DNA from: Planctomycetota bacterium
Lineage (GTDB): Bacteria > Planctomycetota > UBA8108 > UBA8890 > UBA8898
Length of the DNA stretch: 31,086 nt
Assembly (NCBI GenBank): GCA_041308205.1
Contig: JBFZCA010000003.1
Coordinates: forward strand, 1-31,086
Reading direction: 5' to 3'
The notes under the pieces were generated by a model. It saw nothing but the letters and a program-made list of their open reading frames with translations. It ran no database searches and was not told the DNA's origin. Shown one piece after another: positions 5,587-28,639 of the stretch; the stretch's first letter is position 1, and every line of letters begins with the position of its first letter. A program made the translations under genes and the position numbers.

Positions 5587-6966
5587 TCACGATTCCTCCG
5601 CCTCCCGCACGCGCGGCAGCGGAATCGTCACGGTGAAGGTGCTGCCCTTGGACACGACGCTCCGGACGGCGATTGCGCCGCCGAGCTCGCGCGCGATCCT
5701 GTCCGCGATCGCCAGGCCGAGGCCCGTGCCGACGGCGACGTGGGCCTTCGCGTTCGGGGCCCGGTAGAACTCGCCGAAGATCTTGTCGATGGCGTCGGGG
5801 GGGATGCCGATCCCCGTGTCCCGCACGGCGACCGTGGCCGTGTCGCCGTCGGCGGCGGCAACGACCTCGACCTCGCCGCCGGCGGGCGTGTACTTGAGCG
5901 CGTTCTCGACCAGCACCGTGAAGAGCTGCTCCACCTTGCGGCGGACCGCGGGAATCGCGGGCAGCGCCGGGGCGAGCCTGGCTGAGAGCGTGACGCATCG
6001 CTCCTGGGCCGCGTTCTGCAGCCCCTCCACGACATCATCGAGAAGGGGTCCGAGTGCCAGCGACTCGCAGGCTTCGTCGCCGCGGGATTCCCGGATGCGC
6101 GTGAGGCTCAGCATGTCGTTGATCAAGGCGAGCATGTGCTGCGCCTGGCGGTCCGCCCGCCCGACGAGCTCCGTCACCTTCTCGGGTTCCTCGGCGTACC
6201 CCGAGGTCACGAGCCGCAGCACGGTCTGGATCGAGGTGAGCGGCGCGCGCAACTGATGGCTGACGAGCCGGAAGAAGGCGTTGCGCTCCTCGTCGAGCTT
6301 CTCGAGCCGCGCGTGCGCCGCCTCGATCTCGGCGGCGTGGCGCTCGAGCTGCGCGCGCGCCTCGTCGAGCTCGCGCTCGCGGTGCCTGAGGCGGTTCGCG
6401 ATGCCGCCCACGAGCACGGCGACGGTGAGCAGCGTGATGCCCGTGACGCTGCCGACGGTCAGGAGGTGGAGCGTCGCGTCGATGGGGCGCGCGGCCTCCT
6501 CGTCGATGGGCGGGTGGTGCCGCAGCCAGCCGTGCGACTCGGCCACGCCCATGACGATCAGGGAGGCGAGCACCCAGAAGGCGTGGATGACCGTCGTGCG
6601 CCGGCCGACGAGGAGCCCGCAGATGACGAGGTGGAAGACGAAGAACGCGAGGAACGGGCTCAGGGGGCCGCCCGTGAAGTGGATCCACACGAGCAGGGCG
6701 AAGAAATCGGCGCCGATCTGAGCGTTGACGTAGGCGTGAATTCGCCGCAAGTCGACGGGCGGGGCGAGCAGCCGCGGCGCCGCGAGCGCGAAGAGCACGT
6801 TGTACGCCGCGACCGCGATGGCGATGCCGAGGAGCGGCCACGGCGGATAGGTCAGGCCGATCGCATGAGCGGCCAGCGCGCCCAGAGCCATGATGCCGGC
6901 GACGATCCACCTGACACGAACGAGCCAGCGGCTCCGAAAGACGAGCTCTTCTTCGCGTGGAATCAT
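5587..6966 (-). CDS. Membrane-bound sensor histidine kinase (HisKA + HATPase_c), RegB/PrrB-like membrane domain
   Basis: Several hydrophobic segments, H-box HQLRAPLTSI, N-box ENALKYT, DTGIGI, GTGLGLAI. Start placed at MIPREE (6966); the ORF is open to 7041. Confidence 0.9.
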   Translation of the reverse strand: MIPREEELVFRSRWLVRVRWIVAGIMALGALAAHAIGLTYPPWPLLGIAIAVAAYNVLFALAAPRLLAPPVDLRRIHAYVNAQIGADFFALLVWIHFTGGPLSPFLAFFVFHLVICGLLVGRRTTVIHAFWVLASLIVMGVAESHGWLRHHPPIDEEAARPIDATLHLLTVGSVTGITLLTVAVLVGGIANRLRHRERELDEARAQLERHAAEIEAAHARLEKLDEERNAFFRLVSHQLRAPLTSIQTVLRLVTSGYAEEPEKVTELVGRADRQAQHMLALINDMLSLTRIRESRGDEACESLALGPLLDDVVEGLQNAAQERCVTLSARLAPALPAIPAVRRKVEQLFTVLVENALKYTPAGGEVEVVAAADGDTATVAVRDTGIGIPPDAIDKIFGEFYRAPNAKAHVAVGTGLGLAIADRIARELGGAIAVRSVVSKGSTFTVTIPLPRVREAEES

Positions 6967-7107
6967 ACGGCGTTCACGGGTCGCAGCGTCATGCCGGCGG
7001 GCACGACGGGGTTCACTCGCCTGCGCCTGAGACGCCTTCAACTGTAATTGATCGGAGAGACGAAGGCAATTCGGCGCACGCCCCGATTCCGCGGGCCGCC
7101 AATAATA

Positions 7108-7178: not shown

Positions 7179-7290
7179 ATCAAGGCGGCAGGCGATGGCC
7201 CGCCGCCTAAGGGCGCGGACGCGTGGGGTTGGCGCCGTTGTCGGAGACAGTGGAGCTGCTGAAGCGAATTCGAATGCGGGAGGAATGCCC

Positions 7291-7863
7291 ATGTATGCTC
7301 CTCCGGTCGATGAGCGGTTTCTCGCGGAAATAGGATCCCTGCCCGGCGGCGACCGAGTGGCGCAGTGCATCCAGTGCGGCTCTTGTTCGGGGAGCTGTCC
7401 GACCGCGCACTGGATGGATCACTCCCCGCGCCGGATCTTCGCGCTGATCCGCTGCGGCATGCGCGACGAGGTCCTGCGCTCGAACACGCCCTGGACGTGC
7501 GCGTCCTGCTACACCTGCTACGTGCGCTGCCCGAAGGACATCAAGATCACCGATGTGATGTACGCCTTGAAGCGGCTCGCGATCAAGAACGGAAAAACCC
7601 CGCCGGAGGCGCGGCCCGCGCGCGTCATGGCCGAATCGTTCGTTGCGAACGTCCACCGGTTCGGCCGGAACTGGGAGACCGGCCTCATGCGGAGCATGTA
7701 TCTGAAGGGAACGCGGTTCGGCAAGCTCTTCCGCGATCTGCCGCTCGGCATGAGACTCTTTCGTCTCGGCCGCATGCCGCTGCGTCCCACGCGCATCAGC
7801 CCCGAAGGCCGCGCACAGATCGAGAAGATCATCAACGCCGTCGAAGAGACAGGCGGTTTGTAA
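7291..7863 (+). CDS. hdrC: Heterodisulfide reductase subunit C-like 2x[4Fe-4S] protein
   Basis: CIQCGSCSGSCP and CASCYTCYVRCP. GGAGG lies 7 nt before ATG 7291. Directly precedes hdrB. Confidence 0.88.
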   Translation: MYAPPVDERFLAEIGSLPGGDRVAQCIQCGSCSGSCPTAHWMDHSPRRIFALIRCGMRDEVLRSNTPWTCASCYTCYVRCPKDIKITDVMYALKRLAIKNGKTPPEARPARVMAESFVANVHRFGRNWETGLMRSMYLKGTRFGKLFRDLPLGMRLFRLGRMPLRPTRISPEGRAQIEKIINAVEETGGL

Positions 7864-7980: not shown

Positions 7981-8868
7981 ATGGGCTTCGCGTATACCTA
8001 CTACCCGGGATGCTCGTTGGATGCCACGAGCCGCTGGTACGGGCGATCGATTGAAGCGTCCGCCAGGGCGCTCGACGTCGAGCTGTGCGAGCTTGCGGAC
8101 TGGAACTGCTGCGGCGCGACCGCGTACATGAGCGTTCGAGAGCTCATGAGCTTCTGCGTGACGGCGCGCAATCTCGCCCTCGCCGAGCCCTACAGGCGCG
8201 ACATCGTCTCGCCCTGCAGCGCGTGCTTCACCGTGCTCTCCAAGACGAACCGCTACTTCGCGCAGATTCCCGAGGTGCGCGAGAAGGTGAGCGCGGCGCT
8301 CGCGGCGGCGGGGCTCGCCTACGGGGGGACGGTCAAGGTCCGCCACATCCTCGATGCCTTCGTCAACGATGTGGGCGTCGATGCGATCAGGCATCGAGTG
8401 ACGCATCCGCTCGGCGGGCTCAAGATCGCGCCCTACTACGGCTGCCAGATCGTTCGGCCCGAGACCGGCTTGGACAGCCCGGAGTATCCCACGATGCTCG
8501 AGCGGCTGCTCGCGGCGCTCGGCGCCGAACCGGTCGAGTACGAGATGCGCGCCCGCTGCTGCGGCGCATCGCTGATCGTGAGCCGCGAGGACGTGGCGCT
8601 GGAGCTGATCGCCGATCTCCTGCGGTGCGCCCGCGACGCCGGCGCCGAGGCGATCGCGACCGTGTGCCCGATGTGCCACATCAACCTCGAGAGCCAGATG
8701 GCGCGGATCAACGCGCGCTACGGGCTCGATGTCCGCCTCCCCGTGCTGTTCTTCTCGCAGCTCATGGGCGCGGCGCTCGGGGCGGACGAATCCGATCTCG
8801 GGCTCGGCAAGGGTTTTCTCGATGCGCGGCCGCTTCTCGAGCGCCGCGGCGCGGGCGTGCGGGTCTGA
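7981..8868 (+). CDS. hdrB: Heterodisulfide reductase subunit B (two CCG domains)
   Basis: YYPGCSL, WNCCGA, SPCSAC, YYGCQ, RCCGAS, TVCPMC. AAGGAGG RBS upstream. Confidence 0.92.
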   Translation: MGFAYTYYPGCSLDATSRWYGRSIEASARALDVELCELADWNCCGATAYMSVRELMSFCVTARNLALAEPYRRDIVSPCSACFTVLSKTNRYFAQIPEVREKVSAALAAAGLAYGGTVKVRHILDAFVNDVGVDAIRHRVTHPLGGLKIAPYYGCQIVRPETGLDSPEYPTMLERLLAALGAEPVEYEMRARCCGASLIVSREDVALELIADLLRCARDAGAEAIATVCPMCHINLESQMARINARYGLDVRLPVLFFSQLMGAALGADESDLGLGKGFLDARPLLERRGAGVRV

Positions 8869-8884: not shown

Positions 8885-9760
8885 ATGCAGGACACGCCGG
8901 CATGCAGAATAGGCTGCTACATCTGCCACTGCGGCACCAATATCGCGCAGATGGTCGATGTGGAGGAGGTCACCGCCTTCGCGGCCGGGGAGCCCAACGT
9001 GGCCGTGGCGCGCCACGACAAGTACATGTGCTCCGATCCGGGGCAGGCGATGATCATCGCCGACATCAAGAGCCTCGCGCTCGACCGCATCGTCGTCGCC
9101 TCCTGCTCGCCGCGCATGCACGAGCCGACCTTCCAGCGGGCGTGCGAGCGCGCCGGCCTCAACAAGTACCTCTTCGAGATGGCCAACATCCGCGAGCACT
9201 GCGCGTGGGTGCACGAGGAGCGGCGCAAGGCCACCGACAAGGCCAAGGCGCTCGTCAATGCCGCGCTCAAGCGCGTGGCGTTCCACGAGCCGCTGCAGGA
9301 CCGCAAGGTGCCCATCCACCCCGACGCCGTCGTCGTGGGGGGCGGCATCGCCGGCATCACCGCGGCGCTCACGATCGCGGACGGCGGCTCGAAGGTCTAT
9401 CTCGTCGAGAAGGAGCCCTCGATCGGCGGCCACATGAGCGAGTTCGACAAGACCTTCCCGACGCTGGACTGCTCGGCGTGCATCCTGACGCCCAAGATGA
9501 CCGCCGTGGGCCAGCATCCGAACATCGAGCTGCTCACGAACGCGGAGGTGGCCAAGGTCGAGGGCTCGATCGGGGACTTCACGGTGACCATTCGCAAGAA
9601 GGCGCGCTACGTGGACGAGGAGGCGTGCACGGGCTGCGGCCAGTGCTGGACCCTGTGCCCGTCCCGCACCACGCCGCGCAGGAAGACGATACGCATCAGG
9701 ACCAAGTTCGGCGACCAGATCGTGAGGAGGGCGCGCAATGGCGACGAGAACCGCGCGTGA
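8885..9760 (+). CDS. hdrA: HdrA N-terminal half (291 aa), ending after the first half of the inserted ferredoxin
   Basis: IGCYICHCGTNIA, SCSPRMHEPTF, NIREHCAWVH, VVGGGIAG, DKTFPTLDCSACILTPKM, RYVDEEACTGCGQCWTLCP, then stop. AGGAGG RBS before ATG 8885. Confidence 0.9.
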   Translation: MQDTPACRIGCYICHCGTNIAQMVDVEEVTAFAAGEPNVAVARHDKYMCSDPGQAMIIADIKSLALDRIVVASCSPRMHEPTFQRACERAGLNKYLFEMANIREHCAWVHEERRKATDKAKALVNAALKRVAFHEPLQDRKVPIHPDAVVVGGGIAGITAALTIADGGSKVYLVEKEPSIGGHMSEFDKTFPTLDCSACILTPKMTAVGQHPNIELLTNAEVAKVEGSIGDFTVTIRKKARYVDEEACTGCGQCWTLCPSRTTPRRKTIRIRTKFGDQIVRRARNGDENRA

Positions 9761-10220
9761 ACCGGCGGTCGATCTCGCTCCCGCCGAGGGACTCATCAAC
9801 GCGTACGTTGAAAGCCGGGAGGCGACGATCGCGCTCCTGCAGGACGTCCAGAAGCTCTACGGCTATCTGCCGCGCCCGGTGCTCGATCTCATCGCGCGGC
9901 GTCTGGACCTGCCCCGCACGCAGCTCTACGGCCTGGCGACGTTCTACAAGGCGTTCAGCCTCGTGCCGCGGGGGCGGCACTGCATCACCGTGTGCACGGG
10001 GACAACCTGCCACGTGAAGGGCGCGCCGCACTTGCTCGCCACGCTGGAGAGGGAACTGGGATGCCGGTGCGGGGAGACGACCAAGGACGGCCGCTTCACG
10101 CTCGAGCGCGTGAACTGCGTGGGCGCCTGCGCGCGCGCCCCGATCGTCGTCATCGACGAGAAGCCGCACGGGCGGCTCTCGCCGGCGAAGGTCATCAAAA
10201 CCATCGAGCGTTACGAGTGA
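9738..10220 (+). CDS. NuoE/HydC/HoxE-like [2Fe-2S] subunit
   Basis: LLQDVQKLYGYLP, ATFY, VCTGTTCHVKGA, NCVGACARAP. GAGGAGG RBS lies inside the 3' end of hdrA-N. Confidence 0.9.
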   Translation: MATRTAREPAVDLAPAEGLINAYVESREATIALLQDVQKLYGYLPRPVLDLIARRLDLPRTQLYGLATFYKAFSLVPRGRHCITVCTGTTCHVKGAPHLLATLERELGCRCGETTKDGRFTLERVNCVGACARAPIVVIDEKPHGRLSPAKVIKTIERYE

Positions 10221-10237
10221 GACGGGAGTTCGCGCAG

Positions 10238-12268
10238 ATGAAGATACGAAGCATCGCAGACCTTGACCGGATCAAGGAGGAGGGCCTCGGGCTCCTGTAT
10301 CCGAACCGCACGAAGATCGTCGTCGGCACGGCGACGTGCGGCCTGGCGGCCGGCGCGGGAGAGGTGCTGGAGGCGTTCCGCCGGGCGGCCGGCGAGGGCG
10401 GGCTCGACGCCGTCGTCGAGGAGAGCGGCTGCATCGGGTTCTGCCAGATGGAGCCGCTCGTCACGGTCCACCGGCCGGGAACGCCGAAGATCGTGTACCA
10501 CGCGATGACGCCGAAGAAGGCCGAGGCGCTGTGCCGCGAGCTGCGCGAGGGCAGGCTGAGCAGCGCCGGGGCGCTCGGCGAGATCCGGTGCGAGACAGCG
10601 CTCCTGACCGGCGAGGAGCGGCGCTTTGCGGCGAACGGGGGCGGCGGCGCCGGGGCGGCGCTTCCGGATTTCGACGATCTGCCCTTCTACCGCAAGCAGC
10701 TCAAGATCGCGCTGCGCAACTGCGGCTACATCGACCCGGAGGACATCCGGCACTACATCGCGCGCGGCGGGTACTACACGCTCCGCGCGGTGCTCGCCGA
10801 GCGCACGCCCGACGAGATCATCGACGAGATCACGAAGAGCGGGCTTCGCGGCCGCGGCGGCGGGGGATTTCCGACCGGGCGCAAGTGGCGCTCGTGCCGC
10901 AACGCGCCCGGCGCGCGGCGCTACGTGATATGCAACGCGGACGAGGGCGACCCGGGGGCGTTCATGGATCGCAGCCTGCTCGAGGGCGACCCCCACGGCA
11001 TGCTCGAGGGCATGATCATCGGCGCCTTCGCGATCGGGAGCGACCGGGGTTACATCTACGTCCGCAACGAGTATCCCCAGGCCGTCAAGAAGCTCATGCG
11101 GGCCCTGGAAGAGTGCCGCGCCTACGGGCTTCTCGGGGCCGACATCATGGGCTCCGGCGTCTCCTTCGACGTCACGATCAACCGCGGCGGCGGCGCGTTC
11201 GTGTGCGGCGAGTCGACCGCCCTGATGGCATCGATCGAGGGCAAGGTCGGCGAGCCCCGCGCGAAGTACATTCACACGGTCGAGCAGGGCCTCCACAACC
11301 TGCCCACGTGCCTGAACAACGTCGAGACCTGGGCGAACGTGCCCGTCGTGATGCACAAGGGCGCGGCCTGGTTCGCGTCCATCGGGACCGAGGGGAGCAA
11401 GGGCACCAAGGTGTTCAGCCTGGTGGGCGATGTGAAGCACTCGGGGCTCATCGAGGTTCCGATGGGGATCTCGATTCGCGAGGTCCTGTACGACATCGGC
11501 GGCGGCATCGAGGAGGGGCACCGCTTCAAGGCGGTGCAGACGGGCGGGCCGTCCGGCGGCACGATTCTCGTCGACGAGAAGGGCGCGACGGTGAGAACGA
11601 GCACCCCGTCGGAGGACGGCGCTCCCCTCGGCTTCGTCCCGGAAAGCCTGCTCGATCTGCCGGTCGATTTCGACAGCCTCACCGAGGCCGGCTCCATGAT
11701 GGGCTCGGGCGGCATGATCGTCATGGACGAGAAGAACTGCATGGTGGACATCGCGCGCTACTACATCAGCTTTCTCTGCGAGGAGAGCTGCGGCCGATGC
11801 CTGCCCTGCCGCGAGGGGCTCCGCCAGATGGCGGCGATCCTGGACCGTATCACCTCCGGCCGCGGGGAGCACGGCGACATCGAGCTCCTGGAGGAGCTGG
11901 GCGCCGTCGTCATGGACACGTCGCTGTGCGCGCTCGGCGGCACGGCCGCGAACCCGCCGCTCTCGACGATCCGCTACTTCCGCGACGAGTACGAGGCGCA
12001 CATCTACGACAAGAAGTGCCCGGCCGGCGTCTGCAAGGCGCTGATACGATTCGTCATCGACCCGGCGGCGTGCACGGGCTGCGGCGCGTGCCGCGCGGCG
12101 TGCCCCGTGGGCGCGGTCAAGGAAGGCGCCGCACTGCCGGCGCCGGTCGAGGGCGACCCCGCGGCGCCGAGGAAGGCGCGGCTGCTCCACGAGATAGAGC
12201 AGGCCGCGTGCATCAAGTGCGGCGCCTGCGCCGATGCCTGCAAGTTCAACGCCGTGCGCAAGGAGTGA
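10238..12268 (+). CDS. HydB-type (long NuoF) FMN/NADH subunit with N-terminal [2Fe-2S] thioredoxin-like domain and C-terminal 2x[4Fe-4S]
   Basis: TATCGLAAGA...GCIGFC, GLRGRGGGGFPTG, CNADEGDPGAFMDR, FVCGESTAL, NNVET, GGPSGG, ESCGRCLPCREG, SLCALG, CTGCGACRAACP, CIKCGACADAC. Start at ATG 10238 (MKIRSIADL). Confidence 0.92.
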   Translation: MKIRSIADLDRIKEEGLGLLYPNRTKIVVGTATCGLAAGAGEVLEAFRRAAGEGGLDAVVEESGCIGFCQMEPLVTVHRPGTPKIVYHAMTPKKAEALCRELREGRLSSAGALGEIRCETALLTGEERRFAANGGGGAGAALPDFDDLPFYRKQLKIALRNCGYIDPEDIRHYIARGGYYTLRAVLAERTPDEIIDEITKSGLRGRGGGGFPTGRKWRSCRNAPGARRYVICNADEGDPGAFMDRSLLEGDPHGMLEGMIIGAFAIGSDRGYIYVRNEYPQAVKKLMRALEECRAYGLLGADIMGSGVSFDVTINRGGGAFVCGESTALMASIEGKVGEPRAKYIHTVEQGLHNLPTCLNNVETWANVPVVMHKGAAWFASIGTEGSKGTKVFSLVGDVKHSGLIEVPMGISIREVLYDIGGGIEEGHRFKAVQTGGPSGGTILVDEKGATVRTSTPSEDGAPLGFVPESLLDLPVDFDSLTEAGSMMGSGGMIVMDEKNCMVDIARYYISFLCEESCGRCLPCREGLRQMAAILDRITSGRGEHGDIELLEELGAVVMDTSLCALGGTAANPPLSTIRYFRDEYEAHIYDKKCPAGVCKALIRFVIDPAACTGCGACRAACPVGAVKEGAALPAPVEGDPAAPRKARLLHEIEQAACIKCGACADACKFNAVRKE

Positions 12269-12272
12269 TGCG

Positions 12273-14027
12273 ATGGCGGACAAGAGCGTGAAGCTGACGA
12301 TCGACGGGAAGGAGATCGAGGTCGAGCCGGACATCTACATCCTGGAGGCCGCCGAACGGCTCGGCATCTGGATCCCCACGCTGTGCAACTACCGCGGGCT
12401 CACGCCGTTCGGCGTCTGCCGCATGTGCACGGTCGAGGTCGCGCGCGGAACGCGCGTGCGTCTCGTGACCTCGTGCAACCACCCCGTGAGCGACGGCCTG
12501 GTCGTCAGGACCAACACCGAGCGGGTGCGCACGGCGCGGCGAATCCTGGTCGAGCTCCTGTGCGCGCGCCACGGCAAGGTGGGCGTCATCAAGCGGCTCG
12601 CCGAGAACGTCGGCGTGACCAAGCCGCGCTTCGGCGAGGGCGACGAGCCGTGCATCCTGTGCGGCCTGTGCGTGCGGGCCTGCGACGAGATGGCGAAGGC
12701 GAACGCCATCGGCTTCGCGCAGCGCGGCACGGACAAGATCGTGACGACGCCCTACCACGAGGAATCCGAGACGTGCATCAACTGCGGCGCGTGCGCGAAG
12801 GTCTGCCCCACGGGGGCGATCTACATCGAGGGCGCGCAGGAGCTGCGCCACGACGAGCTCGCCCTGGGCCCCAACGCGGCCATCGCCGTGCCCACGATGC
12901 AGGCCGTGCCCAACGTGCCGCGCCTCGATGCCGATGCGTGCCTCCACTTCACAACGGGCGGCTGCGGGATCTGCGCGACGAACTGCCCGGCCAAGGCCAT
13001 CGACTACGAGATGCAGGACAAGGAGATCGAGGTCAAGGCCGGCACCGTGGTGGTGGCGACGGGGTTCCAGGTCTTCGACCCCTCGGTCGCCGAGCAGTAC
13101 GGGTACGGGCGCCTTCCGAACGTCATCACATCGCTCGAGTTCGAGCGCCTGTCGAACGCCGCGGGCCCGACGGGCGGCAAGATCCTCCTGCGCAACGGCA
13201 CGCCGCCCGCGTCGGTCGCGATCCTGCACTGCATCGGCAGCCGCGACGAGCACTACCACCGCTACTGCTCGCGCGTGTGCTGCATGTACTCGCTCAAGTT
13301 CGCGCACCTCGTCCACGAGAAGCTCGGGGCGCGGGTCTACCAGCTCTACATCGACATGCGGACGTTCGGCAAGGGCTACGAGGAGTTCTACGACCGCCTG
13401 CTCAAGGAGGGCGCGCTCTTCATCCGCGGCAAGGGCGCGGAGGTGACGCCGGGCGTGCCGGGCGGCGCCGAGGCGGGCAAGCTCGTCGTCAAGTGCGAGG
13501 ACACGCTCGCCGGCGTCCAGCGCCGCATCCCGGTCGACATGGTCGTCTTGTCGGTGGCGCTCGAGGCGCGGTCCGATGCGCGCGAGGTCGAGCGGCTCTT
13601 CAACCTGTGCCGCAGCGAGGACGGGTTCTTCCTCGAGCAGCACCCGAAGCTCGCGCCGGTCGAGACCACGACCGACGGCGTCTTCCTCGCGGGGTGCTGC
13701 CAGAGCCCGAAGGACATTCCCGACACCGTCGCGCAGGGAGGCGCCGCGGCCAGCCAGGCCCTGAGCCTGATCCTGCGGGGGGAGACCACGCTGAGCGGCG
13801 CCTGCGCGGAGGTCAACCCCGACCTGTGCAGCGGCTGCCGCGTCTGCAACGAGCTCTGCCCCTACAGCGCGATCTCCTACGACGCGGAGAAGAAGGTGAG
13901 CGCCGTCAACGAGAGCCTGTGCAAGGCCTGCGGCACGTGCGTGGCGGCCTGCCCGAGCGGCGCGATCAAGGGCAAGCACTTCACCAAGGAGCAGATCCTC
14001 GCCGAGATCGAGGGGGTGTTGCGATGA
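12273..14027 (+). CDS. Fusion: NuoG/HoxU-like [2Fe-2S]+2x[4Fe-4S] module joined to the HdrA C-terminal half (584 aa)
   Basis: N-part PTLC...CRMC...[26 protein letters not shown]. Then HdrA motifs [76 protein letters not shown] and a C-terminal ferredoxin. Confidence 0.9.
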
Positions 14028-14479
14028 GCCAGGACTTCGAACCGGTGATCGTCGGCTTCCTCTGCAACTGGTGCAGCTACACGGGCGCCGACCTGGCGGG
14101 CACATCGCGGAGCCGCTACCCGCCGAACCTGCGGATCATCCGCGTGATGTGCAGCGGCCGCGTGGAGCCGGCGTTCGTGCTCAAGGCGTTGCGGGAAGGC
14201 GCCGACGGCGTGCTCGTCGCCGGCTGCCACCCGGGCGACTGCCACTACCAGGAAGGCAACTACAAGACGATGCGCAGGATGGCGCTGCTCGGGCCGCTCC
14301 TCGATCAGTTCGGCATCGAGCGCGCGCGCGTGCGCCTGGAGTGGATCAGCGCGAGCGAGGCCGGCCGGTTCGTCGAGGTCGTGAAGGAGATGACGAGCCG
14401 CATCAAGGCGCTCGGGCCGCTGCGGCTCGGGCATGCGCAGGATGCCGAACCGATCGCGGAGAAGCTGGCGCCCGCGTGA
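14024..14479 (+). CDS. mvhD: MvhD/FlpD-type [2Fe-2S] adaptor subunit
   Basis: [41 protein letters not shown] overlap with the upstream gene. Confidence 0.93.
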
Positions 14480-14496: not shown

Positions 14497-15474
14497 GTGG
14501 GCAAACCCAAAGTCGCGTTCTACTGGTGTGCGAGCTGCGGCGGCTGCGAGGAGGCCGTGGTCGACCTTGCCGAGGGCATCCTCGAGGTCGTCGGCGCGGT
14601 CGACATCGTGCTGTGGCCGGTCGCGCTCGACTTCAAGCTCAAAGATGTCCACGCGCTCCCGGACGGCGCGATCGCCGCGAGCTTCATCAACGGATCGGTG
14701 CGCACCTCGGAGCAGAAGGAGTGGGTCGAGCTCCTGCGCCGGAAATCCGGCCTCGTCGTCGCGTTCGGGTCCTGCGCCCACATCGGGGGCGTGCCGGGCC
14801 TTGCCAATCTGTACGATCGCGCCGGCATCTTCGAGCGCGCCTACGACCTGGTGCCGACGGCAGACAACCCGGGCCGCGTGCACCCCCAGACCTCGACGAA
14901 GGTCGCCGAGGGCGAGCTCAGGCTTCCGGAGTTCTTCAACACGGTCAGGACGCTCGACCAGGTGATACCGGTCGACTACTACCTGCCGGGCTGCGCGCCG
15001 CCCCCGGATCTCATCTTGAACGCCGTGCAGGCGATTCTCGCCGGCACGCTGCCGCCGAAGGGCAGCGTGCTCGCGCCGGCCAAGGCGCTGTGCGACACCT
15101 GCCCGCTCAAGGAGTCCAAGCCCGAGAAGATGGCCATCAAGGAATTCAAGCGCATCGCGACGAGCGCGCCCGATCCCGCGGTCTGCTACCTGGCCCAGGG
15201 CTACGTGTGCCTGGGCCCGGCGACGCGGTCGGGGTGCGGAGAACGCTGCATCAAGGCCAACATGCCGTGCCGGGGGTGCTTCGGCCCGACGCCCGAAGCG
15301 ACCGACCTGGGCGCGAAGGCGCTGGGGGCGCTGGCATCGATGGTCGACACGAAGGACCCGGACGAAGCGGCGCGGATCATGGCGATGCTGCCCGACCCCG
15401 CGGGAGCCCTGTACATGTACGCGCTTCCCAGCTCCCTTTTGCAGCGCAAGAAGATGGAGGCGGCGCATGGCTAA
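14497..15474 (+). CDS. mvhG: Group 3c-type [NiFe]-hydrogenase small subunit
   Basis: WCASCGGC, AFGSCA, LPGCAPP, LCDTC, CLGPATRSGC, CRGCFGP. GGAGGA RBS before GTG 14497. Confidence 0.9.
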   Translation: MGKPKVAFYWCASCGGCEEAVVDLAEGILEVVGAVDIVLWPVALDFKLKDVHALPDGAIAASFINGSVRTSEQKEWVELLRRKSGLVVAFGSCAHIGGVPGLANLYDRAGIFERAYDLVPTADNPGRVHPQTSTKVAEGELRLPEFFNTVRTLDQVIPVDYYLPGCAPPPDLILNAVQAILAGTLPPKGSVLAPAKALCDTCPLKESKPEKMAIKEFKRIATSAPDPAVCYLAQGYVCLGPATRSGCGERCIKANMPCRGCFGPTPEATDLGAKALGALASMVDTKDPDEAARIMAMLPDPAGALYMYALPSSLLQRKKMEAAHG

Positions 15475-16927
15475 GCGCATCACGATCGATCCCGTCACGC
15501 GCCTCGAGGGCCACGGCAAGATCGAGATCTTCCTGGACGATGCCGGCAACGTGGCGAACGCCTACCTGCAGATCCCCGAGCTGCGGGGCTTCGAGAAGTT
15601 CGCGGAGGGGCGCCTCGTCGAGGACATGCCGCGCATCACGCCCAAGATCTGCGGCGTGTGCCCGACCGCCCACCATATGGCCTCGGGGAAGACCGTGGAC
15701 GCGGTGTACCACGTCGATCCGCCGCCCGCGGCGAAGAAGATCCGCGAGCTCATCAACTCGGCGTTCGCGGTCGAGGACCACACGCTGCACTTCTACTTCC
15801 TCGGCGGGCCCGATTTCGTCGTGGGGCCCGAGGCGCCGGCCGCCGAGCGGAACATCCTCGGCGTCATAGGCAAGGTCGGCGTCGAGGCCGCGACGAGGGT
15901 GATCGGCATTCGCCGCCGCCTGCGCGCGATCATCACGGCGCTCGGCGGCCGCGTCATTCACCCCGTGTGCAACGTCCCGGGGGGCGTGTCCAAGGGCGTC
16001 ACGAAGGAGATGCGCGAGGAGTTCATCGCGGCGGCCGAGGATGCGGTCGAGTTCGCGAAGTTCACGCTGGGGGTGTTCGGCAAGATCGTCCTCGCGAACA
16101 AGAGCTACGTCGACCTCGTCGTCGGCGACATCTACCTTCACCGCACGTACTACATGGGGCTCGTCGATGCGCAAAATCGCCTGAATCTGTACGACGGCAT
16201 GATCAGGGTCGTCACGCCGTCCGGCAAGGAATTCGCGAAGTTCCCGCCGAGCGAGTACGTCGAGCACATCGCCGAGCACGTCGAGCCCTGGAGCTACATC
16301 AAGTTTCCGTACCTCAAGAAGGTGGGGTGGAAGGGCTTCACGGACGGCGAGACGAGCGGCGTTTACCGGGTTGCGCCGCTCGCCAGGCTCAACGCCGCCG
16401 AGGGCATGGCGACGCCGGCCGCCCAGGAGGAGTACGAGCGCATGTACGCGACGCTCGGCGGGAAGCCCGCCCACAATACGCTCGCCTACCACTGGGCGCG
16501 CCTCGTCGAGCTCCTCTACGCCGCGGAGCGCCTGCGCGAGCTGGCGCGGGACGAGGAGATCCTCGATCCGCACATCCGCACGCTGCCGACCGCGACGCCG
16601 ACCGAGGGCGTGGGCGTCGTCGAGGCCCCGCGCGGGACCCTGTACCACCACTACAAGACCGACGAGCGCGGGGTCGTCACGGAGGCCAACCTCATCGTCG
16701 CGACCGTCAACAACTCGGCTGCGATCTCGATGTCGATCGCGCGCGCGGCCAGGAAGCTCATCACAAACGGCGAGGTCCGGGACGGCCTTCTCAACATGGT
16801 CGAGATGGCCTTCAGGGCCTACGACCCCTGCTTCGCGTGCGCGACGCACGCGGCGGGGCAGACGCCGCTCATCGTGACGGTGCGGGACGCGCGCGGCGCG
16901 CCCCTCCGGGTCCTCCGCAGGGACTGA
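15467..16927 (+). CDS. mvhA: Group 3c-type [NiFe]-hydrogenase large subunit
   Basis: TRLEGHG, L1 KICGVCPTAH, EAPRGTLYHHY, L2 RAYDPCFACATH followed by a 25-aa C-terminal extension. Adjacent to mvhDG and hdr genes. Confidence 0.93.
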   Translation: MAKRITIDPVTRLEGHGKIEIFLDDAGNVANAYLQIPELRGFEKFAEGRLVEDMPRITPKICGVCPTAHHMASGKTVDAVYHVDPPPAAKKIRELINSAFAVEDHTLHFYFLGGPDFVVGPEAPAAERNILGVIGKVGVEAATRVIGIRRRLRAIITALGGRVIHPVCNVPGGVSKGVTKEMREEFIAAAEDAVEFAKFTLGVFGKIVLANKSYVDLVVGDIYLHRTYYMGLVDAQNRLNLYDGMIRVVTPSGKEFAKFPPSEYVEHIAEHVEPWSYIKFPYLKKVGWKGFTDGETSGVYRVAPLARLNAAEGMATPAAQEEYERMYATLGGKPAHNTLAYHWARLVELLYAAERLRELARDEEILDPHIRTLPTATPTEGVGVVEAPRGTLYHHYKTDERGVVTEANLIVATVNNSAAISMSIARAARKLITNGEVRDGLLNMVEMAFRAYDPCFACATHAAGQTPLIVTVRDARGAPLRVLRRD

Positions 16928-16991
16928 GCGCGGCGCGCCGCCTCAGCAGCCGGGAAGCCGATCCTTCGTGAACTCGAATCCCGCCTCGGGG
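16884..16991. repeat. 108-bp direct repeat, left copy
   Basis: 107/108 identical to 23654-23761; the single difference is 16909 G vs 23679 C. Confidence 0.97.
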
Positions 16992-17104
16992 CAGGGGGGC
17001 CGGTATGCTCACGCGGCCCCGCGCCACACGCGCGCCCGCACACACGCCGCGCGGGATGTGCACGGGCTCGCGCGCGGCGCTTCGAGAGCTCCCGCGCCTC
17101 TCGT

Positions 17105-17133
17105 TTGACAGCCGGAATGCTCGCGATTAGGAT
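17105..17133 (+). promoter_or_regulatory. Sigma-70 promoter for the giant gene
   Basis: TTGACA (17105-17110), 17-nt spacer, TAGGAT (17128-17133). Confidence 0.6.
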
Positions 17134-17280
17134 CGTGGATGACAAGGACGCGAACGAGATTCCCTGCCCGCAGAAGGCGCGCCGCTCAGGCCTGATTCAC
17201 GCAGGCAGCGCGCGATTCCCTGCGACTTTCGCCTCGGCTGTCCATGCGGGCAGGACGCGCCAGGCAAGGAGGGCTTCCCG

Positions 17281-20200
17281 ATGCGCATCTTCCCCTCGCC
17301 AGCACCGTTCCTTCTCTTCGTGCTTCTGGCACTCATCACGGCGTTGCAGGCTTGGGGGGCCGAACCTCAAAGCCGTTCCGTCGCCGAGTGGGCGGCGGAG
17401 TTGCGGGCGCCGAATCCGAAAGTCCGCTCGAATGCGGCGACGGCGATAGGGCGCATGGGGCCTGCCGCGGCGCAGGCGGTCCCCGACCTGGCCGCTGCCC
17501 TCGGTGACGCCGATACGGAGGTCCAGGCGAATGCCGCGTGGGCGCTGGCGCAGATGGGCAAGGAGGCCAAGTCCGCGGTTCCCGCCCTGGAGAAGGCTCT
17601 GGGAGACGCCAACTGGCAGGTGCGGGGCCGGGCGGCGGTGGCGCTCGGAGCGCTGGGAACGGAAGCCGGCGCCGCTCGAGAGGCGCTCCGGCGAGCGCTC
17701 AATGACGGCAATGCAAACGTTCGGGCTGCCGCGGCCGGCGCGCTCTGGTCGGTCACCGGCGACGCGACCGAGCCGCTTCCCGCCCTGAAAGGGCTGCTCT
17801 CGAATCCGGACGCGCATACTCGCAGACAGGCCGCTCAGGCGCTCGCCAGAGTGGGCCCGCCTGCCGCCGTTCTCGCGCCCCAGTTGATTGCCAAGCTGGA
17901 CGACTCCGACTCCGGCGTTCGCCTGGCCGCTGCCAGGGCGCTGATGCCGGTCGGCCGGGAGAACGCGGCCGTGCGGGACGCGCTCGAGAAGCGCTTGGCC
18001 GTGGAGAGGGAACCGGTGGTGCGCGAGGCGATGGCCTCGACGCTCGATCAGCTTCGGAAGGAGCCGGCCTCCGGGCCGGCGGGGCGGCACGCGGAACCGC
18101 GCGAGGCGACGGGCGTCGGCCCCGCCGCCGGAAAAGAAGAGGCCGCCGGCGCTCCTGAGCCTGCCGCCGCGACGGCCGGCGCACCTGCGGAGCCAACCGC
18201 GAAGGCCGGGCAGCCCTCCGGCGGCGGCGCGCCGGGCGCCGAGCCCGCCGGCGCAAGCCCGCCTCGATCGGCCGATGCCGAAGGCGGGGCGGAGGCGCGT
18301 CCTGCGGCAAAGGCGCCCGCGGCTCCACGACAGCGACCGCCCGAGCCGGCGTACGAAGGCAGAACCCTCACCGAGTGGATTGTCCGGCTGGACGGCAAGG
18401 ATGTCGGCGAGCGTCGCTTGGCGTGCGTGGCGCTGGGGGAGATCGGCCCTCCGGCCCGGCCGGCCGTCGGACCGCTCAACCGATTGCGCCTCTATGATAC
18501 GCACGACATGGTGCGGCACCAGGCCGCCTATGCCCTGGCGAGGATACTCGGCGTGGCGTTGGGAGACATGCTGCCCAGACCGCCTGCGCCGGCCAAAGGC
18601 GCCGGCGAGAGCGCGGGACCTCCCCCGGAAGGCCGGATCTTCTACCTGTTCGGAGTGCACTCCGTCTCGGAGAAGGGGGTGGAACCGCGCCCCGATCTGA
18701 CGCGCAGAGACACCACCTACAGGCAGTTCCTGTTCGGCTTCACCAACGGGGCGCTCAACTACCTCGATCTTGCGGAAGCCCACAAGTACCGGGAGGACGC
18801 GCGCACGCGCGGCCTGAACGTCGCTCTACCGCTTCCCGAACTGCTCAAGTCGGAGCCGGAGGCGGAGCGGGACCGGATTCGCAAGGAGTACACGTTCTTC
18901 TACAAGTACAAGAAGGATTATATCGTCCGCATCACCTGCAACCGGCAGACCCGTTACGCCTACTACCGCTGGATCGGAGACGAGTACGACTCGTACGGGA
19001 GCGGATCGCACTGGGCCATGACGCCGGGCAGGTATGTCGCCGAGATCACGGTCTGGGTGCGCGACGGTTTCCGCCTGGACTACGAGGCTCCCTTCACCTG
19101 CACGTCCGACGTCTACACCGCCGGCGGAGATCACCTGCAGGCGGCCAAGGCTCACGGCCCGCAGGATCTCGCCGGGGAAGAGCGTGAATACGAGGCCTCC
19201 ATCACGCCGGGAAACACCGACTACAGCCGCCGGATGTTCCCGGGAAGGAAAGCAGGAGCGACCAAGAGGATCGGCGAGAGGATCGCCGGATTGCTCTCGA
19301 AGCTCGCCAATTGCCAGCCGATGATGCCCGACGAGATCTTGCCGTACATCCGCGAATCGCTTGTCTTCTACGACAAGGCCGCGCGCATCGACCCCGCGGC
19401 GCACAAAACCAGGGCCGGTGACCTGAGCATGCTCGTCGATGTGTGCGCCATGGCGGCCTCGCGCGATACGTACGCCATGGCCATCCGGCTCATCGGCATG
19501 CTGGAGAAGGTGATGGCCGACCCGGAGTCGAAGAGCTCCCAGGCGGAGCTGCGAAACGCCCACCATGATCGGGCGGTCTGTTACATGAAACTCGCGGATC
19601 TGGCGTTGACCTATCAGATGGACATTCCCGCCTCCCTCCGGTTCCGGATCGAGGCGTTGCGATACAAGGAGCTGGCCGACGGGACCTTCGGCGACGTGCT
19701 GCGCTCGATGGATGTCGAGAAGAAGATGACCGAGTGGCCGCAGCCGGACTGGTGGAATCCGGCCTGGGACGAGCGGCAGCCGCCGGTCCCCGCGGAGCTG
19801 ACCGAGGAAGGGGAGGGCAAGGGGGAAGAGGCGGCTGAACCGCGGGAGAACGCGGAGCAGGAAGTTGCGGTTGTGAACGCGCAAGAGCTCGAGGAAGCCG
19901 TCGCCGAGGTGGACGAGGAGCGCGCCGAACAGGTGTCGTGGCTCATTCAATTGCGGGGGCAGATGACCAGCGCCAACGCGGAGCTGGGCGCGGCTCTCGC
20001 CAAGCTGGTCGCTCTCCACCGCGCGCTGCTCGCGGTCGAGCAGAAGATGAGCTACTTCGGGAAGCTGCTGGGCGAGGCCTCGGCGCGTCCCGACGATGCA
20101 GACTGGTTCGAGGAGCAGATCTTCAACGCCATCAGGAACAGCGAGGCGATCCGGGACGATCTGGCGGGGCAGGCGCGCGGCGGCGCGGAGGCGATGCGGG

Positions 20201-23653: not shown

Positions 23654-23761
23654 GGGACGCGCGCGGCGCGCCCCTCCGCGTCCTCCGCAGGGACTGAGCG
23701 CGGCGCGCCGCCTCAGCAGCCGGGAAGCCGATCCTTCGTGAACTCGAATCCCGCCTCGGGG
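23654..23761. repeat. 108-bp direct repeat, right copy
   Basis: Contains an orphan copy of the last 14 mvhA codons and the true 3' end of the ELWxxDGT gene. Confidence 0.97.
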
Positions 23762-26700: not shown

Positions 26701-26877
26701 CGTCACGGCCAGGGAGAGGTTCGATGACCCGGTGTTCCCCTCGAGGACATCGCTTACCTGGTAGGGAGTCGCGGCGCCGGCGAGGGCTCCGGCGGCCAGG
26801 AGAGCACACACGCGCGCGCAGGCGATCCCGCGTGTCCGGACCCGATTGCTGCGAGTGGCTTGGCAATGGTCTTGCAT
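23713..26877 (-). CDS. ELWxxDGT-repeat secreted protein with C-terminal dockerin-type-I-like domain
   Basis: About 17 (E)(L/P)WxxDGTxxGT repeats. Tail VRGNVNEDGAIDIADP...DVNDDGAVDIADP. Start chosen at ATG 26877 (GGAGG 5 nt upstream); ATG 26889 is an alternative. Confidence 0.88.
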   Translation of the reverse strand: MQDHCQATRSNRVRTRGIACARVCALLAAGALAGAATPYQVSDVLEGNTGSSNLSLAVTTTAGDVFLAASGRFFLTDGTAGGTRELQLYPVSYPAAAVPFGDRTAVVTDFGDLLLTDWTEEGAVTLKEGVYSSPLLAAPGRLFFFSQAADGTRELWSSDGSPDGTRMLAAVGSPFGPMFDLGDRVVFVAGGLWATDGTPEGTRRLRDDITAIDEERAAIAAPGRMLFVPGAVAPFCAGIGLWVTDGTADGTRLVREFLPTPSDTSPCTAVMREHAAVGDRLVFNGWDATHGLEPWVSDGTPEGTVMLADVKPGTYGSMPADFATAGASAVFFADDGASGREPWATDGTPEQTFLLRDFRAGGEGSSPCVLGTLAGELVLAVRAVPDRTELWATDGTPAGLRMIADLALFSTRPGTTCASFGAPGFLVFVAEDAAHGAEPWTTDGTAAGTRLVRDVRPGSGGSSARDFREGRNGVVVWADDGVHGSEPWTSDGTAEGTAILADLDATPVENPEWCAAPDGRLFFRAYADETGSEPYVTDGTATGTRLCADIRPGAEGSMPAALRPCGTRVLFSADDGEHGEELWASDGTDGDAALLADRPAAPGSAAITRFGTLGDLELFLPDIASARNELWITDGTAAGTRLLRTFTPATPFVSLWHGMELNGRFYFSGNDGVHGTELWVTDGTVEGTRLFLDLAEGADSSWPQVWVRLGDLLFFWAGVGDASPSGCLWQTDGTVDGTRRVCSDGLEELASCPKPFVVLNDRLLCIGERAGIDGDALWSLDGTCGGARFVRDLGVFQLGPRLYGAAEGRCFFEVGIHPWVTDGTAEGTMRVSAKSVMRGVLGGGRFYFVSTDGASGIQGDVWMADGAAEDTESLVYAPPASGYGAPDLFGAERRAFLTKPLGLFQSSRTRGGMYVAHDTDPAVASSFCEFMNKPRSEPIMVGDLLYYWVSESAGGPPRLWAVPLPDSESVFVRGNVNEDGAIDIADPISILNHLFAGQTTTAACADALDVNDDGAVDIADPIWLLSFLFVNGPPPRPPHPEAGFEFTKDRLPGC

Positions 26878-27073
26878 CAGCGCCTCCATTCCTGATCGAC
26901 CGGCTCGATACGTTCCATTGTAGGCGGGGCGTGAATGAAAGACAAGCAAGAAACTGCGGGCGCACGCGCCGGCGCCGCGCGGAGCCGCCGCCGCGGACGG
27001 CGCTTTCTCGAGGGTTCCGCTGCCGCTATACTGAAAGGCGAGGTTGCCCGTCCCCGGCGGAAAGGCATGCACG

Positions 27074-28525: not shown

Positions 28526-28550
28526 GGGAACCATGCGACATCTCGGCGAC

Positions 28551-28577
28551 AAATCAGTGACTGTCCCCGGATTCCCC
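28551..28577. repeat. Possible REP-like half element (…GTGACTGTCCCCGGATTCCCC)
   Basis: Resembles GGGGACAGTCAC-type interspersed repeats recalled from other genomes. Single copy here. Confidence 0.25.
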
Positions 28578-28607
28578 TGACGCACGGCTGGCCTGCCGTG
28601 ATGCTCC

Positions 28608-28639
28608 ATGTAGACAATCGATGGTCTCTACATTAGACT
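28608..28639 (+). promoter_or_regulatory. TA operon promoter with overlapping inverted repeat
   Basis: TAGACA (28611-28616), 17-nt spacer, TAGACT (28634-28639). ATGTAGA-N12-TCTACAT dyad at 28608-28633. Confidence 0.5.

Follow-up and report, generated by a model that had tools for sequence, protein, structure and literature searches.

An HdrA subunit divided between two genes within its inserted ferredoxin domain, with a three-gene Bfu cassette in the gap: a predicted two-chain iron-sulfur flavoprotein of Mvh-Hdr operons

The stretch of DNA analysed here (31,086 nucleotides, hereafter the window; contig JBFZCA010000003.1 of the Planctomycetota assembly GCA_041308205.1, positions 1 to 31,086, forward strand) carries an operon in which hdrA, the gene of the flavin adenine dinucleotide (FAD) binding subunit of heterodisulfide reductase, is present in two pieces. 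Open reading frames (ORFs), Pfam matches and PDB alignments gave the order hdrC-hdrB-hdrA_N-bfuC-bfuB-bfuA'::hdrA_C-mvhD-mvhG-mvhA for nine genes, all on the plus strand. This organisation is best explained by an Mvh-Hdr operon whose hdrA is interrupted by a three-gene cassette of the Bfu (HydABC-type) family, placed within the inserted ferredoxin domain, in the loop that connects its two Cys motifs. The two halves of HdrA would reassemble, and the domain formed by their Cys motifs, designated M1 on the N-terminal half and M4 on the C-terminal half, would feed electrons into the Bfu module. We assign a probability of roughly 0.7 to this reading as a whole.

The original prediction, made from the letters of the window, held that HdrA is cut inside its inserted ferredoxin and that one Cys motif is left on each side. 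Translation placed both motifs at the expected positions, M1 as CTGCGQCWTLCP at 9626-9661 in the ORF ending at 9760, and M4 at 12939-12989 in the ORF 12273-14027. The N-half is collinear with residues 5-258 of the solved HdrA from Methanothermococcus thermolithotrophicus (5odc_A; 253-residue alignment, E=9e-95). The protein encoded by the fusion gene aligns with residues 233-651 of the same structure (E=3e-107), and NuoG/BfuA-type subunits (8a6t_A, 9mqx_A, 7t2r_A) match its first ~186 residues. In 5odc_A, the inserted domain contains, as counted from the alignment, C246/C249/C252/C256 and C293/C296/C299/C303, joined by ...NEFDMGIGMRKAIYKPFPQAVP.... In the alignment, M1 falls on the first of these sets, the stretch 12864-12911 on the linker and M4 on the second set. 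The break is located in the loop right after the first Cys motif, in agreement with the prediction. The accompanying statement that the N-half ends with this motif was correct for the motif and incorrect for the end, as a tail of 32 residues (9662-9757) follows M1.

As the ferredoxin domain is itself an insertion within the thioredoxin reductase (TrxR)-like FAD domain (limits according to PMC9012536 and bioRxiv 10.1101/2024.09.26.615249), the break also divides the FAD domain. On the N-half, GxGxxG is found, and the HCxGSRD/YCSRVCC site and the DGVFLAG motif on the C-half, which supports the predicted division of the FAD site; from its motif, we read the DGVFLAG stretch (13674-13715) as a predicted FAD contact. 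M1 and M4 are encoded on separate chains, 2.5 kb and two genes apart, and the locus does not encode HdrA as one chain of ~650 amino acids (aa). When both chains are counted, the motif set of HdrA is complete: the N-terminal [4Fe-4S] domain is present together with the FPTLDCxxC pair of the Cys197 type (C14, C16, C49, C74, C196 and C199, aligned to 5odc_A and 8rvu), and so is the C-terminal 2x[4Fe-4S] domain with its partners HdrB (two CCG domains), HdrC and MvhD, according to Pfam matches and invariant Cys.

Beside M4, the fusion protein contains two further Cys motifs, M2 and M3, which had been regarded as a NuoG-type pair. This pairing was corroborated by the Pfam domain Fer4_Nqo3, which spans both motifs, and by superposition of the modelled BfuA' region on WorA (9mqx_A), which gave a root-mean-square deviation (rmsd) of 2.3 Å over 187 columns at 40% identity. 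WorA has the clusters A1, A2 and A4 and lacks A3, and its clusters A2 and A4 are bound by the same two motifs as the M2/M3 type (PMC12318220). Furthermore, stand-alone BfuA proteins of ~250 aa match residues 6-187 of the fusion only, the stretch which contains M2 and M3. Since M2 and M3 match the A2/A4 domain of WorA, M1 and M4 are left as orphans, one on each chain, as had been proposed. No spare conserved Cys was found in either half among 121 fusion homologues and 25 N-half orthologues, so neither half should be able to complete a cluster alone. M3 and M4 are separated by 44 residues of one chain; the spacing after the first Cys of M4 differs in other lineages (x7, x12, x16). Taken together, the split architecture and the orphan status of M1 and M4 appear very likely indeed.

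The same arrangement was found well beyond the window. A locus scan with one genome per species returned at least 80 loci, at least 27 of which carry both halves in the same order. According to the labels of their metagenome-assembled genomes (MAGs), these 27 or more loci belong to about ten phyla, with Verrucomicrobiota, Zixibacteria, Ignavibacteria, Armatimonadetes, Calditrichaeota, Aminicenantes, Bryobacterales (Acidobacteria), Anaerolineae, Planctomycetes (Planctomycetaceae) and Desulfobacterales represented; in a search for a cultured host, all matches with an organism name were MAGs. Two archaeal contigs contain related forms, one a fusion (L042; L and P numbers denote loci and proteins) and the other, from Thermoplasmata, a fusion together with an HdrA-N::NuoE protein (L050). 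The fusion protein has more than 120 full-length homologues of ~584 aa with 57-98% identity, the closest (98%) from a Planctomycetes MAG, and ~17-20 representative clusters at 50% identity span the junction between BfuA' and HdrA.

Conservation of the orphan Cys in orthologues, on which the original prediction depended, was observed for both motifs. In 121 aligned fusion sequences, all four Cys of the [2Fe-2S] cluster A1, of M2, of M3 and of M4 are invariant. The four Cys of M1 are intact in 27/27 two-half loci among those listed and in 25/25 sequences of the N-half alignment, where the only invariant Cys are the canonical HdrA set named above and those of M1. All eight Cys of M1 and M4 are retained at an overall identity of 53-66% across phyla. 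In three loci (L025 3207-3209, L026 2090-2092, L028 2218-2220; two labelled Anaerolineae), an in-frame TGA takes the place of the second Cys of FPTLDCsxC in the HdrA N-half (…LDCST*ILGP…), which is probably a selenocysteine codon beside the Cys197-type ligand. In another locus (L005 9502-11985), the fusion ORF, 828 aa in length, continues into MvhG-like sequence, and mvhD was not detected; a deletion, a fusion or an assembly error may account for this form.

Natural variants join the parts in different ways. HdrA-N::NuoE fusions occur in Planctomycetaceae, Verrucomicrobiota, Desulfobacterales and Thermoplasmata (L018 2872-4593, L022 6715-8088, L023 5155-6546, L050 214-1494). A family of single-chain proteins of 773-811 aa has the order M1-tail-M2-M3-linker-M4, without the [2Fe-2S] domain and without NuoEF between its parts (L033 2820-5150; P0121, P0122, P0145, P0150, P0153, P0159, P0177, P0189, P0196, P0223, P0226, P0227); named members come from Syntrophobacteraceae and Polyangia. 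A single chain of 883 aa (P0469; L081 4787-7438) consists of HdrA-N, a complete BfuA' and HdrA-C, and its neighbours are a fused hdrCB, a HydS-like sensor kinase, two response regulators, a 215-aa FlpD/NiFe fragment and HycI. As neighbours which are joined in some lineages occur as separate genes elsewhere, all parts presumably belong to one complex.

The insertion site is shared with other HdrA proteins. ORFs of 1120-1130 aa, very common in Dehalococcoidia and Syntrophobacterales and including P0149 from Syntrophobacter fumaroxidans, encode HdrAs of ~1125 aa with a large insertion at the site of the inserted ferredoxin, which replaces M4 (L051, L067, L073, L074 and the series P0123-P0240). 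By eye, we read this insertion as GltD/NfnB-like. A similar case was described for HdrA of ANME-1 archaea, where an NfnB-like domain interrupts the inserted ferredoxin domain (PMC9012536, S8 Fig). Judged from these sequences, the grafting of redox modules evidently has a hot spot in the inserted ferredoxin domain.

The proposal that M1 and M4 complement each other in trans was followed by inter-chain covariation, with a divided outcome: the general scan was dominated by phylogeny, and one pair of residues from M1 and M4 gave a clean signal. Mutual information between the M1 and M4 regions was calculated for 35 paired sequences, and only the pair of residue 249 of the N-half and residue 240 of the C-half was followed up. 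The former directly follows Cys-I of M1 (9629-9631), the latter lies two positions after Cys-IV of M4 (12990-12992, fusion numbering). Among the split pairs, Asn is combined with Lys or Arg in 12/12 and Thr or Ser with Ala or Pro in 11/11 cases, with 0 exceptions in 23. In single-chain four-motif forms, Asn is found with Lys or Arg in 9/12; in intact HdrAs, Thr is mostly combined with Ser, Ala, Thr or Pro, and Asn with Arg. In the classical ferredoxin fold, the first three Cys of a motif share their cluster with Cys-IV of the partner motif. The covarying residues are expected to be neighbours because Cys-I to Cys-III and the partner Cys-IV bind the same cluster, and the signal is thus suggestive of a contact between M1 and M4.

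Of two structure models, the religated one was compatible with this assignment. An AlphaFold2 model of the natural halves placed end to end (875 aa) had a mean predicted local distance difference test score (pLDDT) of 77.8 and aligned to whole HdrA with a target-normalised template modelling score (TMt) of 0.74-0.75. A religated sequence of 661 aa, in which the N-half (residues 1-267) is followed by the C-half from LRHDEL and cassette and tail are removed, gave a pLDDT of 84-88 at M1 and of 82-91 at M4. It superimposed end to end on 5odc_A/5odh_A (663 columns, 48-49% identity, TM 0.70). By this alignment, the two halves together make a complete HdrA in which no part is missing. M1 and M4, two complete and conserved motifs homologous to those of the inserted domain of 5odc_A, are predicted to form a 2x[4Fe-4S] fold. 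They probably work together, because they are combined in natural single-chain forms and contain a covarying pair. On these grounds, it is likely that both the inserted ferredoxin and the FAD domain are completed in trans.

The three genes involved in the cassette resemble those of flavin-based bifurcating enzymes. The best PDB matches of the NuoF-like protein are all of the BfuB type (9bov_B, 7t2r_B, 8a6t_B, 9n5u_B, 9mqx_B; E 1e-183 to 1e-191, some covering residues 60-674), whereas Nqo1 of Thermus complex I reached only 1e-108. As in BfuB, the protein is a NuoF-like subunit binding flavin mononucleotide (FMN) and NADH, extended by an extra domain at the N-terminus and by a 2x[4Fe-4S] domain at the C-terminus, and the NuoE-like [2Fe-2S] protein corresponds to BfuC. 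In BfuA', Pfam gave no match to NADH-G_4Fe-4S_3, the domain of the His-ligated cluster A3, and the only Cys in the would-be A3 segment (C110 in 597-aa numbering) is not conserved; the closest structure is WorA (9mqx_A). BfuA' is accordingly classified as a Type 2 BfuA with A1 [2Fe-2S] and A2 and A4 [4Fe-4S], and without the His-ligated A3 and without A5, following the definition of Type 2 by Schut et al. 2022 as lacking A3 and A5 (PMC9304861). These assignments identify the genes between the hdrA halves, at the level of sequence, as a Bfu (HydABC-type) core and not as parts of complex I.

In several lineages, a block of ~3.7 kb separates hdrA-N from nuoE, as in L012 (3531-7225), and similar gaps were seen in L009, L011, L013-L016 and L029. 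The genes of the L012 block encode DRTGG, HATPase, sensory [FeFe]-hydrogenase-like (Fe_hyd_lg_C), DRTGG-like, PHP and HATPase proteins, a set which we take to be a typical companion of HydABC operons. The block fits an origin of the cassette from a HydABC operon and hints at regulation by H2 sensing.

Homology, conservation, the single-chain variants and the covariation suggest the following working model. The two HdrA pieces would reassemble non-covalently, the FAD domain being rebuilt from both chains with FAD at their interface. M1 and M4 would form a 2x[4Fe-4S] fold in which each cluster is ligated 3+1, with a single Cys supplied by the second chain, and this domain would be the low-potential exit of the bifurcating FAD, the role of the inserted domain in solved Hdr complexes (PMC9012536, PMC13518236). 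[quoted passage not shown] On the low-potential branch, electrons would pass from the M1/M4 clusters to A4, A2 and A1 of the fused BfuA' and on to BfuBC, rather than to free ferredoxin. The BfuBC core, with FMN, the NAD(H) site and C-terminal ferredoxin-reducing clusters, would then reduce NAD+ and ferredoxin, so that two bifurcating modules would run in series. A step from M1/M4 to A4 is the simplest route because the inserted domain is the exit in solved Hdr complexes, because Type 2 Bfu enzymes use A4 as the port to their partner modules (PMC9304861, PMC12318220) and because M3 and M4 are 44 residues apart. We propose this electron route tentatively, at slightly less than even odds. The still wider view is possible and at present rather doubtful: a widespread 'Mvh-Hdr-Bfu' supercomplex in which H2 electrons are split at the HdrA FAD, the low-potential half enters a HydABC-type core via clusters ligated by two chains and is split again to NAD+ and ferredoxin, and in which a whole operon, inserted into a loop of the protein, gave rise to the division and made assembly obligatory.

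Several observations weigh against this reading or reduce the force of its support. The covariation counts ignore phylogeny and correspond to an estimated four or so independent switches on a crude tree. In the natural concatenated model, M1 and the tail (residues 249-293) had a pLDDT below 50, and the religated model rests on an alignment of intact HdrAs, so that its confidence partly restates homology and speaks for compatibility rather than for assembly in trans. For the HdrA C-part (L001-L080), a crude neighbour-joining tree calculated without bootstraps does not group the split forms as one clade; they fall into at least four groups (main bacterial, Anaerolineae, Archaea and Desulfobacterales), each adjoining intact or single-chain HdrAs, a pattern which could stem from more than one origin, from re-fusion or gene conversion, or from an artefact of the tree. 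Moreover, no nuoE or nuoF was found near the 883-aa single-chain variant in L081, and the BfuA' insert may therefore sometimes act without BfuBC. The low pLDDT of M1 also fits an alternative in which the halves rejoin through the FAD domain only, M1 and/or M4 being relics without a cluster or with a single incomplete cluster completed by a non-Cys ligand, and electrons take another route from FAD to BfuA'; the exchange of the proline after Cys-IV of M1 for Leu, Phe, Met or Val in some lineages and the outright replacement of the tail in NuoE-fused forms point in the same direction. Relics would hardly keep all eight Cys at the overall identity given above, and both motifs are kept in single-chain relatives, the residues flanking Cys-I of M1 and Cys-IV of M4 covary, and the inserted domain is the sole low-potential exit in solved HdrA (PMC9012536, PMC13518236). 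We consider this alternative improbable.

Another pairing, in which M3 and M4 form a complete inserted ferredoxin on the fusion protein and M1 and M2 are the orphans, was raised by a phmmer search: with the fusion alone as query, M3 and not M1 was placed on the first inserted-domain motif of solved HdrAs, and M3 and M4 share one chain at a short distance. Any CxxCxxCxxxCP motif aligns locally to another, however, M1 falls on the first motif of HdrA itself within the long collinear alignment, and M3 was dropped as candidate for the HdrA motif after the match to Fer4_Nqo3 (residues 127-183), the WorA superposition and the stand-alone BfuA proteins had identified M2 and M3 as one NuoG/BfuA ferredoxin-like domain, which leaves this pairing very improbable. 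With the M1/M4 domain retained as the predicted link to Bfu, the direction of electron flow can still be asked. The Bfu module might be the input, NADH and reduced ferredoxin being confurcated into HdrA as in class II benzoyl-coenzyme A reductase (BCRII), where BamGHI confurcates NADH and reduced ferredoxin and feeds the HdrA-like BamE (bioRxiv 10.64898/2026.04.10.717634); the complex would then evolve H2 or reduce a disulfide with NADH, and the hydrogenase would not be the donor. Evolution of H2 might be useful to many of the host lineages, which are probably fermenters. Such a reversal is unlikely, as the input position is held by MvhD and MvhAG and BfuA' is fused to the inserted, low-potential domain; by our own estimate, it would be uphill to form H2 (-414 mV) from electrons at ~-400 mV together with thiol-derived ones. 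That the split is an artefact or reflects gene decay (a frameshift, a mis-assembly or a pseudogenised hdrA beside an unrelated nuoEFG operon) has to be considered for a MAG with ~70% G+C, where spurious ORFs abound. The probability of this explanation is nearly nil given identical gene order and break point in at least 27 independent loci of many phyla, start/stop overlaps typical of translational coupling, strong constraint on both halves and lineage-specific fusions which unite the same neighbouring genes.

One detail of the original prediction was not upheld, namely that remnants of an RKAIxI linker remain on both sides of the break. NAAIAV of the C-half is the positional homologue of RKAIY, and RRKTIRI of the N-half belongs to a separate conserved tail. 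When canonical, archaeal, Krumholzibacteriota-type intact, single-chain and split forms were compared, a homologue of RKAIY was found on the C-half only, and RRKTIRI was rejected as its remnant; the likeness of the tail to RKAIxI amounts to three or four residues with a weak h-x-L-G resemblance and is too short for a call of homology. The archaeal fusions L042 and L050 retain the entire canonical linker on the C-half (SEFNAG..R.AIYVPFPQAVP in L042), and the archaeal N-half (L050) stops right after CPV. Intact HdrAs of Krumholzibacteriota-type MAGs read CWEKCPGTRVPRKGNVHEKLSLGPTTSIYMPFMQAVP, which corresponds to the start of the N-half tail and the C-half linker in one chain. The tail follows the pattern CP-x4-P-x2-R-x-[ILV]-x-[LIK]-G-x2-[IV] in most split forms and in 10/10 listed single-chain forms, whereas N-halves joined to NuoE have a linker in its place. 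As it is kept in single-chain four-motif forms and replaced where NuoE is fused, it is probably a functional element, perhaps a docking strand.

The coordinates of the genes and motifs are compiled in Table 1. A ribosome-binding site, GAGGAGGAG, precedes the hdrA N-half, and starts and stops of the operon genes overlap or abut as in translationally coupled genes. Pfam matches to MvhD/FlpD and to a small and a large hydrogenase subunit beside the hdr genes assign the hydrogenase, as predicted from these matches, to the Mvh type (group 3c).

Table 1. Position of genes, domains and Cys motifs of the split operon within the window.
Feature	Position	Strand	Basis
hdrC-like, 2x[4Fe-4S] ferredoxin-type subunit	7288..7863 (start approximate)	+	Pfam Fer4_8/Fer4_17 dicluster domain; orthologues at same operon position in related loci
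hdrB-like, two CCG domains	7981..8868	+	Pfam CCG, two stretches, E=1e-27
hdrA N-half (HdrA-N), 291 aa: N-terminal cluster domain, first part of FAD/TrxR-like domain, M1, tail	8885..9760	+	5odc_A 5-258, E=9e-95
FAD dinucleotide-binding motif VVVGGGIAGITAA (GxGxxG), N-half	9329..9367	+	Pfam FAD_oxidored, FAD_binding_2 and Pyr_redox matches, residues 147-185
M1, CTGCGQCWTLCP, first Cys motif of HdrA inserted ferredoxin domain	9626..9661	+	Aligns to C246/C249/C252/C256 of 5odc_A (numbering counted from alignment)
N-half tail, SRTTPRRKTIRIRTKFGDQIV..., 32 residues after M1	9662..9757	+	Conserved pattern
nuoE/bfuC-like, thioredoxin-like [2Fe-2S]	9738..10220 (start overlaps hdrA-N stop)	+	Pfam 2Fe-2S_thioredx, E=1e-48
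nuoF/bfuB-like, 675 aa: N-terminal extension, FMN/NADH site, [4Fe-4S], C-terminal 2x[4Fe-4S]	10241..12268	+	Pfam Complex1_51K, SLBB, NADH_4Fe-4S, C-terminal Fer4 x2
Fusion gene: BfuA'/NuoG N-terminal module and hdrA C-half, 584 aa	12273..14027	+	PDB alignments, Pfam, >120 full-length homologues
[2Fe-2S] ligands of BfuA' (cluster A1), four Cys	12384..12476	+	Pfam Fer2_4; Cys 100% in 121 sequences
M2, first motif of BfuA ferredoxin-like domain (clusters A2/A4)	12651..12683	+	Pfam Fer4_Nqo3 residues 127-183; superposition on WorA 9mqx_A; invariant
M3, second motif of BfuA ferredoxin-like domain	12774..12809	+	As for M2; region also in stand-alone BfuA of ~250 aa
HdrA inserted-domain linker, homologue of G.RKAIYKPFPQAVP	12864..12911	+	Alignment to 5odc_A and 8rvu; conservation profile
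M4, second Cys motif of HdrA inserted ferredoxin domain	12939..12989	+	Alignment to solved HdrA; four Cys invariant in 121 sequences
HCIGSRD...YCSRVCCMY, [4Fe-4S] site of TrxR-like domain, C-half	13227..13289	+	Invariant Cys; alignment to solved HdrA
C-terminal FAD-binding motif (DGVFLAG) of TrxR-like domain, C-half (predicted)	13674..13715	+	Aligned to DGVYLAGACQGPKD of 5odc_A
HdrA C-terminal 2x[4Fe-4S] ferredoxin domain, entry side from MvhD	13827..13955	+	PDB alignment, Pfam, conservation
mvhD (FlpD)	14024..14479 (start overlaps fusion stop, ATGA)	+	Pfam FlpD, E=1.5e-56
mvhG-like, [NiFe]-hydrogenase small subunit	14497..15474 (GTG start)	+	Pfam Oxidored_q6
mvhA-like, [NiFe]-hydrogenase large subunit	15467..16927	+	Pfam NiFeSe_Hases

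Upstream of hdrC, a divergent gene on the minus strand (5587-7041) encodes a membrane histidine kinase (PilS-like with six transmembrane segments, HisKA, HATPase) which may be a regulator of the operon. Directly downstream of mvhA, an ORF of 2123 aa (17281-23652) contains HEAT repeats confined to its first ~230 residues, and the remaining ~1900 residues gave no Pfam match; the same holds for two large minus-strand ORFs at 23713-27216 and 27026-28609. No HycI/HoxW-type maturation protease and no hyp genes were found after mvhA (16927-17281 and the rest of the window); in the L081 variant, HycI is adjacent.

The split Hdr-Mvh-Bfu arrangement is apparently both undescribed and widespread. Neither a split HdrA nor an Hdr-Mvh-Bfu class was found described in the full-text literature searched, where an earlier mention is possible. 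Schut et al. 2022 excluded metagenomic sequences, left 18/57 BfuB clades unassigned and listed no Hdr-Mvh-Bfu class (PMC9304861). A 2013 genome paper on Desulfotignum phosphitoxidans named the units 'nuoEFGmvhD', 'nuoGEFmvhDhdrA' and 'hdrAmvhDnuoEFG...' and noted no split (PMC4046663). Current database labels of the genes are 'hypothetical', '4Fe-4S dicluster protein' or 'HdrA'. The hydrogen metabolism of uncultured phyla such as Zixibacteria, Aminicenantes, Ignavibacteria and Planctomycetes may consequently be misread if these loci are scored as an ordinary Mvh-Hdr plus a separate NuoEFG.

[4Fe-4S] clusters shared between subunits are found in the nitrogenase Fe protein and as F_X of photosystem I. 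These also draw their ligands from two polypeptides and make assembly obligatory, whereas the operon described here would divide a whole 2x[4Fe-4S] fold, with both clusters ligated 3+1. To our knowledge, which rests on a limited literature search, there is no natural precedent for a 2x[4Fe-4S] ferredoxin fold made of two chains. A natural case in which such a fold and a FAD domain are split over two polypeptides would be useful for studies of Fe-S assembly at interfaces, for the engineering of split proteins and for annotation. Within HdrA, ligation across chains is known from the N-terminal cluster, which is completed by Cys197 of the partner protomer (PMC9012536).

One of the closest systems is MvhAGD-HdrABC of methanogens (PDB 5ODC, PMC9012536), with which HdrA, HdrB, HdrC, MvhD, MvhG and MvhA are held in common. 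The joined halves are 48-50% identical to the solved HdrA over its full length and share all cluster Cys sets including the Cys197-type pair. In contrast to the methanogen complex, HdrA is encoded as two polypeptides, between which the BfuCBA cassette is placed with its BfuA' joined to the C-half, an NAD(H)/ferredoxin module is the predicted target of the low-potential exit instead of free ferredoxin or polyferredoxin, and the host is a non-methanogenic bacterium. The HdrAs with inserted NfnB/GltD (ANME-1; the ~1125-aa forms of Dehalococcoidia and Syntrophobacter fumaroxidans) share the insertion site and the principle of an NAD(P)H-handling module on the low-potential branch; there, a single domain is inserted in one polypeptide and M4 is replaced, whereas here a three-gene cassette interrupts a broken protein which keeps both M1 and M4. 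With WorABCSL, a Type 2 Bfu enzyme (PDB 9mqx, PMC12318220), the cassette shares a BfuA with A1, A2 and A4 and without A3 and A5, close homologues of BfuB and BfuC, and the predicted use of A4 as the partner port, a role which A4 has in WorABCSL. WorA recruits its partner by a C-terminal helix, while the HdrA C-half is covalently fused after A4.

BCRII of Geobacter metallireducens, BamBCDEFGHI, is the nearest system known and the only complex described which likewise contains HdrA-type and HydABC/Bfu-type modules (bioRxiv 10.64898/2026.04.10.717634, PMC9304861); according to the 2026 preprint, no oxidoreductase supercomplex with two distinct bifurcation modules had been reported earlier (bioRxiv 10.64898/2026.04.10.717634). 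Both systems have a BfuA without A3 (Type 2) and an MvhD-like adaptor. In BCRII, the entry of the Bfu arm runs through the MvhD-like adaptor and the ferredoxin domain at the C-terminus, the output is a tungsten AOR-type enzyme, and HdrA is duplicated and fused. In the operon described here, BfuA' is grafted at the inserted ferredoxin domain and hence on the output side, with a [NiFe]-hydrogenase on the input side after mvhD, HdrA is split, and no AOR-type gene is encoded within the window. The operon thus predicts a second way to couple HdrA-type and HydABC-type modules, with Bfu on the low-potential branch of HdrA and a [NiFe]-hydrogenase included, which appears to be phylogenetically much broader than BCRII.

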